Assembly: GCA_964352785.1 (NCBI GenBank)
Contig: CAYGTI010000017.1
Location: forward strand, 4,494-68,493
Direction: 5' to 3'
Origin: an uncultured Caulobacterales bacterium
GTDB lineage: Bacteria > Pseudomonadota > Alphaproteobacteria > Caulobacterales > Maricaulaceae
Length of the DNA: 64,000 nt
The stretch's first letter is position 1, and each line of letters starts with the position of its first letter. Shown piece by piece: positions 3,974 through 31,785 of this stretch. A program made the translations under genes and the position numbers. The notes under the pieces were generated by a model. That model had not been told where the DNA came from, did no database searches, and was given only the letters and a program-made list of their open reading frames with translations.

Positions 3974-5110
3974 TCATGCGCCTGTTTGCCGGAAATCTGT
4001 CACATTTGGCGTAGCGGGCGCGTCTTCCATATCTAAAGCCTCAATTTTATCGGCGCGTTTAGTGATTTTTTCCGTTGAAATACGGATTTTACGAATGTCT
4101 TCGCTGGATTGATTAAAGTGCTGTTGAAGCTTGCTAACCCGGTCATCAAGAAGTGTAACGTCCTTGGCCATCATGCCGACTTCTTTCTGGATGATATGGG
4201 CCTGTTCTCTCATCTGCGCGTCTTTCATCACAGCGCGCATGGTGTGAAGCGTCGCCATAAAGGTCGTTGGGGATACAATCATGACCTTTTGAGAAAACCC
4301 CTCTTCTATGATGTGGGGGAAATGGGCATAAAGCTCCGCGTAGACCGCTTCGCTCGGCAGAAACAAAAGCGCCACATCATGTGTTTCGCCAAAAATCAAA
4401 TACTTGCTTGCAACGGCTTTGAGATGGAGACGCACGTCGCGGGCAAAGTCGCGCTGAGCGGACGTTTCGTCTGTATCTGATGTGGGATCCGAGAGCCGCC
4501 TCCAAGATTCAAGGGGAAACTTGCTATCAACGGCCACGTCGCCTTGATCACCTGGCAAGTGTATCAGAGCGTCAACGCGTTTGCCGTTAGATAACGTTGC
4601 TTGAAATGTATAAGATGAGGACGGGAGGTAATCCTCGATCAAGTCCTGCATTTGCTTTTCGCCAAATGCGCCGCGCGCTTGTTTGTTTGAGAGCAGGTTT
4701 TGCAGACCTGAGACCTCGCCTGATAATGTTTCAATGTTTTTTTGCGCGCGGTCAATCAAGGCGAGACGTTCGTGGAGTTGTTTGAGGTTGGCCGAATTGC
4801 GCTCCTGCGTTTCGGTGATAGATCGCCCGACCCGCTCCGAGACTTGCGACAAGCGGCTATCGAGTGATTCGCGAAACAAGGTGTCGCGCTGCGCTGTGTC
4901 TTCAGCAAATTGCGATAGGCGGCCTTGCAGCGCGTTTTGCCTGTCTGTCATGTCCGAAAGATGCACTTTAAGATCACGCGCGCCGCGCCGCGTTATCACC
5001 AACGTCAGCATTGCGCCAATTAACATCAATGTTAGGCCGAGAATAAGTTCGACGAGACTAATTTCTAGGCCCTGATATGATATGATGGAGTCCATACGCA
5101 TCAGTCCCAC
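3974..5110 (-). CDS. rmuC: DNA recombination protein RmuC
   Basis: 378 aa with an N-terminal TM helix, a long coiled-coil and a C-terminal RmuC nuclease-like region (VDALIHLP..VAVDSKFPLE, LFLPSEAVY, IVSPTTF). Confidence 0.85.
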   Translation of the reverse strand: MGLMRMDSIISYQGLEISLVELILGLTLMLIGAMLTLVITRRGARDLKVHLSDMTDRQNALQGRLSQFAEDTAQRDTLFRESLDSRLSQVSERVGRSITETQERNSANLKQLHERLALIDRAQKNIETLSGEVSGLQNLLSNKQARGAFGEKQMQDLIEDYLPSSSYTFQATLSNGKRVDALIHLPGDQGDVAVDSKFPLESWRRLSDPTSDTDETSAQRDFARDVRLHLKAVASKYLIFGETHDVALLFLPSEAVYAELYAHFPHIIEEGFSQKVMIVSPTTFMATLHTMRAVMKDAQMREQAHIIQKEVGMMAKDVTLLDDRVSKLQQHFNQSSEDIRKIRISTEKITKRADKIEALDMEDAPATPNVTDFRQTGA

Positions 5111-5296: not shown

Positions 5297-6004
5297 ATGA
5301 TGGCCAAAATTTATCTTGTTGATGATGATGAGAATATTCTCACATCTGTTTCGATGTTCCTTGAGAGCGAAGGTTATGAGGTGCGCAAATTTTTCGACGG
5401 CGCAGCGGCGCTGGATATCTTGCGCAGCGATCCGCCTGACTTGGCAGTTTTCGATATCAAAATGCCGCGAATGGATGGTCTGGAACTTCTGCGGCGTTTG
5501 CGCCAGACGTCCAATTTGCCTGTGATTTTTCTGACATCCAAAGATGATGAATTCGACGAAGCCATCGGCCTTAATATGGGTGCTGATGATTATATCAAAA
5601 AGCCTTTTTCGCAGCGCTTGTTAGGAGAGCGCATCAAAGCTGTTCTGCGGCGCGCTTCATTGACAAATATTGAACTCCCAGAGCCAAATGTGGATGATGC
5701 CAAAGTTATGACGCGCGGAAAGCTTGTTTTGGACCCAAACCGTCACGCGTGTAGCTGGGAGGGCCAAGCGGTACGCTTGACCGTGACGGAGTTTCTGATT
5801 TTAGAAGCCTTGGCCCGGCGTCCGGGGTTTGTGAAATCGCGCGACCAATTGATGGACGCCGCCTATGATGACCAGATTTACGTGGATGACCGCACAATTG
5901 ATAGCCACATCAAACGCCTGCGTAAGAAATTTCGCAAGCATGATAAAACATTTGATGGTATCGAAACGCTCTACGGCGTTGGCTACAAATATAAAGAAGC
6001 ATAG
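5297..6004 (+). CDS. chvI: OmpR-family two-component response regulator ChvI
   Basis: Receiver domain ([27 protein letters not shown]) plus a winged-helix domain ([36 protein letters not shown]). It lies directly upstream of the chvG-type kinase. The start is set at ATG 5297, preceded by GGGGAG; the GTG at 5255 would add 14 non-conserved residues. Confidence 0.85.
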
Positions 6005-7656
6005 GATACTCTCTGGCTCGCTCTCCCAAAACTAAGGATAAAAGCGCGGAGCGTTCTATCGTTTTCTCCCGTCTCGCGCGGGTCATTTTCCTATCCAACC
6101 TTATTGGACTGGCAATTCTCATTGTCGGGTCTTTGGCCCTTAATCAATACACGGCGGAACTCATTAAGGCGCGGGTTGAGAACTTACGCTCACAAGCGAG
6201 CTTGATCAGTTCTGTCATCGGCGAGACAGCGTCAGGTTTTGAAGGCAATGCCGCGCTTGATGTTCCTCGCGCGCGTGACTTTATTGAACGTATTGAACTA
6301 CCAAAGGGATGGCGCATTCGATTGCATGATAATAACGGGATACTGCAACTCGATAGAGACAGTTTTGATGATGAAATTTCTATTACGCCGCTGGGCCCCA
6401 TCGAGCCCGCTGCTGGACGAGGTATAAACCTTACAGAATTATGGGCGGCCATGCGCGCCCGTACAGGCGCGATGATGCATAACTTGCCATGGCGGGTTTA
6501 CCGCCGGGAGTTTTTACAACGAGACTTGCGTGGAGATATCAGGCGCGCGCTCGCAGGCGAAACAATTGGCGGTGAAAGGTATGATGAAAATGACGATCTG
6601 ATCGTGACCGTGAGCCTGCCCGTCACGCGTGTTCAAAATATTCTTGGCGCTGTGACGCTCGAATCCTCTGATGTGCAAGATATTATCGCGAGTGAACGGC
6701 GGGCTTTAACACCGTTCATTGGCCTTGCTATTGTCGCGGCGCTTCTGTCTTCGATTGCGTTGACAATTTCGATTGTTCAGCCTCTTCGTCAGCTATCCCG
6801 CGCCGCAGAAATTGTGGGTAAGTCGAGCACTAAACGCGGAGATATTCCTGATTTTTCCAGCCGGGGCGATGAGATCGGTGATTTGTCTGTTGTTATACGA
6901 AACATGACCCTTGGCCTTTATTCACGGATTGACGATATCGCAAATTTTGCAGCGGATGTGGCACATGAAATTAAAAACCCGCTGACCTCTTTGCGTTCGG
7001 CCTCTGATACGCTCAGGCATGTCAAGACAGACGAGCAAAGAGAAAAACTCATCGCAATTATTCAAGAGGATGTTGGGCGCATGGATCGCTTGATCAGCGA
7101 TATCTCGCGGGCGTCCAAAGTGGATGCTAATTTGGCACGCGACACGGCGCAAAGCATAAATATTTATGATATTTTGACAAACATTACAGAGTTTTATCAA
7201 CAAACTCGTTCCGGCGAAAATGCGTCTGTCGTTCATATATCTACAGACCGTGCGCACGACATGGATCCGGTTATGATACGCGCTTTTGAAACACCTTTTG
7301 CGCAGGTCTTGCGTAACCTTATTGATAATGCGTTGACATTTTCACCGCCTGACGGACTCGTTCGCTTGTCTGCTAAGCCTAGTGTCGAAGGGCAAAAGGG
7401 CAAAGTCATTATAAGTGTGGAAGATGATGGGCCAGGCATCCCGCCCGACAATTTGGAAACGATTTTTGATCGCTTTTATACTGAACGCCCGAAAGGCGCG
7501 CAATTTGGATCCCATTCTGGATTAGGTCTTGCAATTTGCCGTCAAATCGTAAGAGCACACAAAGGTAAAATTTGGGCTGAAAACAGGCAAGGCGAGGCTC
7601 ACGTATCAGGTGCGCGCTTTATGATCGAGCTGCCCCGGGATTTCCCGGCGAATTAA
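6001..7656 (+). CDS. chvG: sensor histidine kinase ChvG/ExoS-type
   Basis: The protein has a HAMP region, the H-box [15 protein letters not shown], the N-box [10 protein letters not shown] and G-boxes EDDGPGIP / [11 protein letters not shown]. The first TM helix ([25 protein letters not shown]) is encoded at 6061..6140, upstream of the track's TTG start (6133). The frame opens at 5995 and contains no ATG/GTG/TTG before 6133, so I place the start at ATA 6001, which overlaps the chvI stop TAG. CTG 6013 is the alternative (see findings). Confidence 0.75.
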
Positions 7657-30856: not shown

Positions 30857-31315
30857 ATGGAGATGATTATGAAAAAGTTTAAGAAGAAACACACCCTCCG
30901 CGATCAGGGTTTTACACTCGTTGAGGTCATGGTTGTTATGGTGATTATCGGTTTGCTGGCCACATTCGTTGTGATCAATGTTCTGCCCAGCCAAGACAAA
31001 GCGATGGTGCAAAAGGCCAAGGCGGACATTCGTTTGCTCGAGCAAGCTCTCGAGATGTACCGTTTGGATATGCTGGACTATCCCGACCCTGATGCCGGAT
31101 TGTTGGCCTTAAAGGCATTGCCAGCGGGAAGTGAAAATGTAGACCGTTACCGCGAAGGTGGCTACGTGAAATTTTTGCCGGATGATCCGTGGGGCCGTCC
31201 TTATCTTTACGTCTATCCAGGTGAAAACGGCGTTTTTGATATTATGTCATACGGATCGGACGGGCAGCCTGGCGGTGAAAAACAAGCCGCAGACATTGTA
31301 AGCTGGCAACAATAA
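30857..31315 (+). CDS. gspG: type II secretion system major pseudopilin GspG
   Basis: Prepilin leader and cleavage motif ...RDQG|FTLVEVMVVMVIIGLLA, and the GspG C-terminal signature DPWGRPYLYVYPGENGVFDIMSYGSDGQPGG. Confidence 0.95.
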   Translation: MEMIMKKFKKKHTLRDQGFTLVEVMVVMVIIGLLATFVVINVLPSQDKAMVQKAKADIRLLEQALEMYRLDMLDYPDPDAGLLALKALPAGSENVDRYREGGYVKFLPDDPWGRPYLYVYPGENGVFDIMSYGSDGQPGGEKQAADIVSWQQ

Positions 31316-31785
31316 GACGCGCGGCCCGCATATCACAGGCGGGATTCACGCTCGTCGAAGTTTTAACTGTCTTGGTTATTATCGGGCTGGTGTCCAGCGC
31401 TGTTGTTTTAACATTGCCCGGCGATAAGCCTGCAGAAGAGACCTATGCGAAACAATTAGTACGCGGGTCCAACGCCATGTCTCAATCCAGTTTACTGACA
31501 GGCATGCCTTCGGCGCTTGGCTTATCCGAGGATGGTTACGCGCTCATGGTTTTTGAAAACGGCACTTGGGTTGTGAAGTCAGAGCAAGCTCTACCCGAGG
31601 GTGTCCGTCTGACGTTTGAGAGAGAGGCACTCCCGGTGAAGCTTTCCGAAGACATAATGCCCGCTGCTATTTTTGAACCGTCCGGCCAAGCAACTGTGTT
31701 CTCCTTGGTGCTTTCGGGGCCGCAAAGACGCTATGAGCTTATTAGTCGTGGTGATGGACGTGTTGTTTTGGAGAGAGCTTCGTGA
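31312..31785 (+). CDS. gspH: type II secretion system minor pseudopilin GspH
   Basis: The prepilin motif QAG|FTLVEVLTVLVIIGL is encoded at 31336..31380, upstream of the track's TTG start (31372). The frame opens at 31279 with no ATG/GTG/TTG. ATA 31312 overlaps the gspG stop (ATAA) and gives a textbook leader (M)RRAARISQAG|F. CTG 31303 is the alternative. Confidence 0.7.
   Translation: MRRAARISQAGFTLVEVLTVLVIIGLVSSAVVLTLPGDKPAEETYAKQLVRGSNAMSQSSLLTGMPSALGLSEDGYALMVFENGTWVVKSEQALPEGVRLTFEREALPVKLSEDIMPAAIFEPSGQATVFSLVLSGPQRRYELISRGDGRVVLERAS

Follow-up and report, generated by a model that had tools for sequence, protein, structure and literature searches.

This report concerns the junction of two adjacent genes, chvI and chvG, in a 64,000-nucleotide stretch of DNA (the window) that spans positions 4,494 to 68,493 of the forward strand of contig CAYGTI010000017.1, assembly GCA_964352785.1, from an uncultured Caulobacterales bacterium of the family Maricaulaceae. 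The first of the two genes encodes an OmpR-family response regulator, and the chvI genes of genus relatives are 85-94% identical to it. Directly downstream lies the gene for the sensor kinase ChvG, followed in the window and in relatives by EIIA-Man and HPr-like genes of the nitrogen-related phosphotransferase system (PTS-Ntr). The chvG reading frame offers no canonical start codon ahead of the sequence for its first transmembrane helix (TM1). As discussed below, translation of chvG very probably begins at CTG 6013, 8 nucleotides (nt) past the chvI stop codon, and comparison across 13 sequences indicates that this CTG is demonstrably under codon-level selection. The features of the junction are the following.

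5297 to 6004, + strand: chvI, OmpR-family response regulator, from the open reading frame (ORF) listing and Pfam matches to Response_reg and Trans_reg_C; its stop codon is TAG 6002-6004.
5955 to 6035, + strand: remnant of an ancestral chvG leader nested in chvI, in the chvI +1 frame from ATG 5955 to TAA 6033-6035, from three-frame views.
6001 to 6003, + strand: ATA, with two bases in common with the chvI stop TAG; the start preferred earlier, rejected here.
6003 to 6006, + strand: AGGA, a Shine-Dalgarno (SD)-like motif that overlaps the chvI stop (uAGGA), 6 nt before CTG 6013.
6013 to 6015, + strand: CTG, the proposed chvG initiation codon.
6013 to 7656, + strand: chvG as re-annotated, a coding sequence for 547 amino acids (aa) with its stop at 7654-7656, from translation.
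6016 to 6063, + strand: putative basic cytoplasmic leader of 16 residues, from leader conservation across orthologues.
6082 to 6141, + strand: TM1, 20 residues within the Sensor_TM1 match, near-invariant as protein with saturated third codon positions.
6133 to 6135, + strand: TTG, the first canonical start codon, inside TM1 (the Leu of G-S-L-A-L) and the codon chosen by gene callers.

The frame that becomes chvG opens after TAA 5992-5994 and continues AGA AGC ATA(6001) GGA TAC TCT CTG(6013) GCT CGC; between that stop and TTG 6133 it contains no ATG, GTG or TTG. A preliminary description of this DNA had pointed out the opening of the frame, the late TTG, the ATA that shares two bases with TAG 6002-6004 and the AGGA in front of CTG 6013, and all of these are indeed present in the sequence. 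It had also assigned TM1 to codons 6061 to 6140, which is the right region with coordinates one codon off, as 6061 is the first base of a GTT (Val) codon and the segment F-S-R-L-A-R-V starts at 6064. When TTG 6133, residue 41 counted from CTG 6013, is taken as the start, the product is the annotated window protein of 507 aa. The 46-codon startless stretch is unusual for the genome. A scan of 2664 putative genes, which counted the codons separating each upstream in-frame stop from the first canonical start and detects only stretches of at least 25 codons, gave a median of 6 codons and a 99th percentile of 48, and chvG ranked 11th in the genome by the dicodon coding score of its startless stretch.

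The protein read from the CTG has the domain structure of a ChvG kinase. Residues 15-71 match Sensor_TM1 (PF13755) over profile positions 6-62 of 68 with 53.2 bits against a cut-off of 26.6, and the catalytic core is recognized by Pfam HisKA (56.1 bits) and HATPase_c (94 bits), both above their cut-offs. A HAMP match scores 24.8 bits and so misses its 25-bit cut-off by 0.2 bits. In the sources, relatives about 60% identical bear the name 'ChvG'.

Clear evidence that the region before TTG 6133 is coding emerged from a set of 13 sequences with 66-82% ChvG identity (L001-L004 and L125-L133, window included), referred to here as the Hellea-like clade. Close relatives were found by exact-protein look-ups of the shortened gene calls (504-532 aa) on their contigs, and genomes G002, G007 and G010 were added. 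The full-length ORF is intact in all 13 and measures 544-549 aa when read from the CTG. Over the 28 codons of the TM1 region, counted from F-S-R-L, differences amount to 0.16 at the first codon position, 0.03 at the second and 0.58 at the third. Because this pattern is the signature of purifying selection, the stretch before TTG 6133 is, by this comparison, certainly translated and under strong purifying selection as protein. The earlier contention that TM1 must be translated is thus borne out, both by the Sensor_TM1 match and by the selection acting on the orthologues.

The leader that precedes TM1 evolves faster, with pairwise differences of 0.37, 0.30 and 0.60 by codon position among the same 13 sequences. 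Even so, Ala12, Arg14, Ser15 and Ile16 are invariant residues, each encoded by three to four synonymous codons, and Arg is written both as CGN and as AGA. Since the leader residues from Ala12 onward are kept by way of synonymous codons, translation would have to begin before codon 12.

A CTG shortly behind the chvI stop is found in 13 of 13 clade sequences. Sixteen codons stand between it and F-S-R-L (17 with the CTG itself) in 12 of them and 17 (18 with the CTG) in the last, which carries an in-frame insertion, and no stop or frameshift intervenes. A codon alignment of the 13 full genes contains 162 columns in which an invariant residue has at least four-fold degeneracy, and this CTG is the only one of them whose codon is invariant as well; the same holds within the 38 columns of invariant Leu, where the CTG column is again the sole one with an invariant codon. 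TTG, ATG and GTG, though each is one substitution away, occur at this position in none of the 13 sequences. The invariance of the CTG, together with the lack of a stronger start codon there in 13 lineages, suggests that the weak start is itself selected.

The sequence just upstream of the CTG sets a boundary on where translation could begin. Among the 13 sequences the CTG follows the chvI stop after a spacer of 2, 7, 8, 9 or 19 nt (8 nt in the window), so that chvG stands in all three frames (f0, f1 and f2) relative to chvI. Two orthologues have a TAA one codon before the CTG (TAA TCT CTG in L128 and TAA CCT CTG in L133), which leaves room for one non-initiating codon only.

SD-like motifs also precede the CTG. 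In 12 of the 13 orthologues an AGG-type motif stands 4-7 nt ahead of it, often built from the chvI stop itself (uAGGA, uAGGUG, uAGGGGGAG, uAAGGU). TAG serves as that stop in 11 of the 13 clade sequences, compared with 2 of 23 outgroup loci. With a canonical anti-SD sequence assumed, the predicted anti-SD duplex averages -5.3 kcal/mol before the CTG start versus -1.9 kcal/mol at 310 internal CTG codons of the same genes. RNA folding of 5975-6065 is unremarkable (z = -0.59).

The probable origin of this arrangement can be followed by comparison with more distant relatives. The chvI-chvG junctions of 40 relatives were taken and translated in three frames, and the majority of genomes in the genus, family and order proved to have the chvG start inside chvI, at the conserved L-Y-G-V-G-Y codons. 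There the chvI codons TAT-GGN hold a +1-frame ATG, which gives N-termini such as M-[AE]-S-D-T-N-I-x-K and an overlap of 32 nt. In these other Alphaproteobacteria (loci L005-L030 and L045-L124) the first chvG residues are constrained because they overlap chvI codons. A scan of metagenome contigs, whose best match was 62% identical and which contributed no close relatives, was used only for surveying the ancestral arrangement; with its 80 loci included, the nested ATG is in frame and open in 43 of 100 adjacent chvI-chvG loci. Many other loci read ACG-GCG-TTG, where the TTG contained in the Val-Gly codons (GTT-GGN) is usable as a start. Such is the case in Caulobacter, where chvI occupies 252525-253232 and chvG 253207-254811, with a TTG start and an overlap of 26 nt (Dataset S1, Schrader et al. 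2014, PMC4117421); that TTG is marked 'Start codon verified by LC-MS' (liquid chromatography-mass spectrometry; PMC4117421). The ancestral nested start has no obvious SD in the junction sequences, and for that reason weak translation of the kinase may be the ancestral condition.

Two loci outside the clade depart from the nested arrangement in their own ways. In L017 (G020:C73), from another genus of the family, the nested site reads ACG in an open frame that offers no canonical start ahead of TM1, and this gene may have acquired a non-canonical start independently. In L010 (G006:C56) a TGA interrupts the old leader, and an ordinary ATG follows the chvI stop (M-K-E-Q-R-Q-G-P-R-R-S-V-V-F-S-R-L); as its junction reads, this is a second relocation of the chvG start, to a canonical codon.

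Within the Hellea-like clade, the nested start has been lost almost throughout. The 13 sequences are monophyletic (support 100/94), and the sister sequence has a normal nested ATG. In the window the relevant chvI codons are TAC-GGC-GTT-GGC, with ACG 5973 where relatives have ATG. TTG 5979, at the site of the verified Caulobacter start, is still there, and its frame, which runs as far as TAA 6033-6035, is out of register with the chvG body; the K-K and L-A-R codons are 13 nt apart in the window and 12 nt apart in L002 (G010). All told, 12 of the 13 clade sequences cannot use the nested start, which is out of frame in nine (L001, L004, L125, L126, L127, L129, L130, L131 and L132) and cut off from chvG by in-frame stops in L003, L128 and L133. 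A TAG even occupies the nested codon position in L126, L128 and L131, so the small nested ORF is not conserved. The Tyr codon that once carried the nested ATG is TAC in nine clade members and TAT in four, variation which implies that it is no longer constrained there.

One alternative to CTG 6013 is a start past the CTG and still ahead of TM1, with ATC 6058 and codon 17 (GTT 6061) as examples; it would keep TM1 and lose the basic leader. Codon 17, just before F-S-R-L, is GTG in L003, L128 and L133 and ATG in L130 and L132, and gene callers use it in these five; it is GTT, GTC, ATT or ATA in the other eight, window included. Similarly, Ile16 is always an AUH codon and the window has a GGAG at 6048-6051, 6 nt before ATC 6058, but that GGAG is found in the window sequence only. 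A downstream start leaves the invariance of the CTG unexplained and does not account for codons 10-15, which are kept as amino acids through synonymous changes and so are translated, nor for Sensor_TM1, which begins at about residue 10, before codon 16 or 17. As the sole start of chvG, such a codon is very unlikely.

Initiation at ATA 6001, by termination-reinitiation within an ATAG overlap with the chvI stop, was the model favored in the preliminary description, which had proposed aligning related junctions. That alignment finds an in-frame ATA in only 4 of the 13 orthologues, namely the window (L001), L004, L126 and L127; elsewhere the frame differs or a stop intervenes, as it does between the chvI stop and the CTG in L128 and L133. 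The ATA is in frame in the window and does overlap the stop, but it is a mere consequence of the last chvI Ala codon being written GCA, a synonymous variant, in front of TAG, it has no SD at a usable distance, and the four codons from ATA to CTG are neither conserved nor constant in length. The codon as such would be capable of initiation: CUG, AUA, AUC and AUU all initiate at 1-2% of AUG in E. coli (10.1101/063800), and infC of this same genome appears to start at ATA. For chvG, a start at ATA 6001 is nonetheless highly improbable.

A +1 ribosomal frameshift before TAA 6033 could in principle join the nested leader (from ATG 5955 or TTG 5979) to the chvG body, and the retention of TTG 5979, with an ORF that runs to 6035, past the opening of the chvG frame, would suit such an event, as would the 13 nt in the window where L002 has 12. 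In L126, L128 and L131, though, stops fall at the start position of the nested ORF or close to it, and the species would need differing events (a +1 shift, stop read-through or none). No conserved slippery site is found in the 13 clade junctions, which also lack a conserved combination of zero-frame ORF and shift site like that of prfB, and the local RNA fold is as unremarkable as stated above; frameshifting is scarcely credible here. Equally hard to credit is the idea that the annotated TTG 6133 is correct, or that the junction holds an assembly error or a decaying gene, for although gene callers do give the 507-aa product, purifying selection acts strongly on both the leader and TM1 in 13 species, every one of which has an intact full-length ORF, the 8-nt spacer and frame of the window recur in the independent assemblies L125, L126, L127, L004 and L130, and the two departures from the ancestral state (ATG to ACG, and the change of frame), separate as they are, would both have to be errors. 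The recurrence of spacer and frame in independent assemblies likewise upholds the earlier opinion that a sequencing error is unlikely.

Initiation at CTG 6013 thus remains the favored reading, and several points weigh against it. The 13 sequences are related to one another, so the counts given above overstate their independence. The SD of the window itself is modest (AGGA, -4.0 kcal/mol), within the top 18% of the control CTG codons, and the anti-SD had to be assumed canonical as the 16S gene of this genome runs off the end of a contig before its 3' end. The five clade members with GTG or ATG at codon 17 may make use of a second, downstream start. Finally, L002 (G010:C4), which is nested within the CTG clade and has a 7-nt spacer, is the sole member with the nested ATG in frame; it may have retained, regained or be using the old nested start, and it has kept the CTG with its AGGTG.

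Relaxed start-codon use across the whole genome was considered as a general explanation and rejected, for long startless N-termini are confined to a handful among the 2664 genes (ppc, infC, prfB by frameshift, chvG, gspH and a few others). The known special cases among these, infC and prfB, provided positive controls for the genome scan. In infC (G000:C14:70707-70950, + strand) an AGGAG is followed after 8 nt by ATA, with 81 codons lacking a canonical start; in prfB (G000:C1:263175-263277, - strand) the expected N-terminal part lies in another frame, as befits a programmed frameshift. A glycosyltransferase-2-like gene outside the window (G000:C12:23105-23345, - strand) has 80 coding-like codons without a canonical start in its C-terminal half and may be split or frameshifted.

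The ppc gene, also outside the window (G000:C22:1791-2174, + strand; locus L159), has 127 codons without ATG, GTG or TTG, and its frame opens directly after the stop of the gap gene, with TAGGAG-ACACCC-ATT. Of the five other genomes of the genus that have a ppc match (L160-L164), four carry ATC or ATT at the same place: ATC in G002, G005 and G011 behind AAGGA, AGGAGG or AGGAG, and CTG ATT ATC in G007, with a GTG farther upstream; G010 has ATG. These alignments point to a likely conserved AUY start of ppc in the genus. Both infC (ATA) and ppc (ATT) appear, then, to be other near-cognate starts behind good SD motifs in the same genome.

The preliminary description had noticed a similar arrangement at gspG/gspH, in the window, and the parallel is real: ATA 31312-31314 overlaps the gspG stop TAA 31313-31315, and the first canonical codon, TTG 31372, comes behind the prepilin G|F site. 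Across the junction (31276-31374; loci L135-L138) there is no ATG, GTG or TTG before the gspH prepilin motif G|F-T-L-V-E. In-frame candidates are CTG 31303, ATA 31312 (as ATAA with the gspG stop) and ATA 31330, all three of which are kept in G010 and G007; in G002 an in-frame TTG lies within gspG and a CTG stands one base past the stop, and other members of the genus have an ordinary ATG or TTG start. No SD is evident before the gspH candidates at this junction. The 4-base ATGA and GTGA overlaps mentioned in the same description do occur elsewhere in the window.

Taken across the genome, and as far as startless stretches of at least 25 codons reveal it, the rate of non-canonical starts looks comparable to the roughly 1% of Caulobacter (PMC4117421), with no lineage-wide loss of start-codon fidelity. 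Ribosome profiling in Caulobacter assigned CTG starts to 0.7% of coding sequences and other near-cognate starts to 0.25% (PMC4117421). Near-cognate initiation, CUG included, is already established in bacteria, and specifically in a related alphaproteobacterium. The chvG of the window resembles the CTG-initiated genes of Caulobacter crescentus, a member of the same bacterial class in which a near-cognate CUG serves as a genuine start. It differs from Caulobacter chvG itself, where the TTG is nested 26 nt inside chvI; here that site has been abandoned for a CTG behind the chvI stop, on evidence that is comparative.

The sequence of events envisaged is as follows. The ancestor of the Hellea-like clade had the usual alphaproteobacterial chvG start, an ATG or TTG nested in the Tyr-Gly-Val-Gly-Tyr codons of chvI with an overlap of 26-32 nt. 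The clade gave up that start, and a Leu codon close behind the chvI stop, previously internal to chvG, most probably took over initiation. In the present-day gene, initiator tRNA is predicted to read CUG 6013 as fMet with a first-position mismatch, and ribosomes that end chvI translation at the UAG, or 30S subunits caught at UAGGA, would presumably initiate at the nearby weak CUG. The product would be a kinase of 547 aa that has TM1 intact behind a short basic cytoplasmic leader, and it would be made, given the weakness of the CUG, at perhaps a small fraction of the amount of the regulator.

Such a ratio has precedent. Two-component systems are known for low kinase-to-regulator ratios, and a selected weak start for the kinase fits this habit. 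Adjacent bacterial genes are commonly coupled in translation through proximity of stop and start, as in ATGA and GTGA overlaps with termination-reinitiation. The chvI-chvG junction is like such pairs in that the start lies 2-19 nt past the upstream stop in 13 of 13 sequences and the SD overlaps the stop codon; unlike the usual pairs, its restart codon is non-canonical, and coupling is suggested by the sequence arrangement. The preliminary description had imagined coupled reinitiation at a non-canonical codon, possibly setting a low level of kinase. A weak near-cognate codon close to the chvI stop, as coupling would have it, is what the comparison supports, and the codon in question is not the ATA but its second candidate, the CTG that is invariant throughout the clade.

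The classic example of a weak start with a function is infC of E. coli, whose AUU allows initiation factor 3 (IF3) to regulate its own synthesis. As in infC, the weak near-cognate start of chvG appears to have been kept by selection and not replaced by AUG. The two differ in that the chvG codon is CUG, with a first-position mismatch, and not AUU or AUA, and a response of chvG to IF3 is hypothetical; they also differ in that chvG starts directly behind an upstream stop, which suggests coupling. A broader proposal is that the CUG is a selected regulatory device by which ChvG synthesis and the kinase:regulator ratio would be set by start-codon stringency (IF3, growth state) together with chvI translation, and that the genus reuses a near-cognate start 5-8 nt behind an SD made of an upstream TAG (ppc ATT/ATC, possibly gspH ATA). 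We regard this proposal in its entirety as doubtful.

Whatever the fate of that proposal, the relocated start bears on how these kinases are described. Gene callers start chvG at differing internal codons in the window and at least nine related assemblies, yielding products of 504-532 aa that have lost the basic leader together with some or all of TM1. The topology of a membrane kinase that senses the periplasm would thereby be misread; judged from the alignment, current chvG annotations are wrong across the whole clade. The locus also provides a well-resolved case of start-codon relocation, from a nested start that is verified in Caulobacter to a weak CUG behind the stop, which has stayed unchanged while neutral sites were saturated. 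Its particular value lies in an ancestral start that is both verified and identifiable, in a replacement that the tree records, in codon-level selection on the CTG and in a corrected annotation. Should the CUG indeed prove to be a regulatory device, the kinase:regulator ratio of a conserved envelope-stress system would depend on the stringency of start-codon selection.

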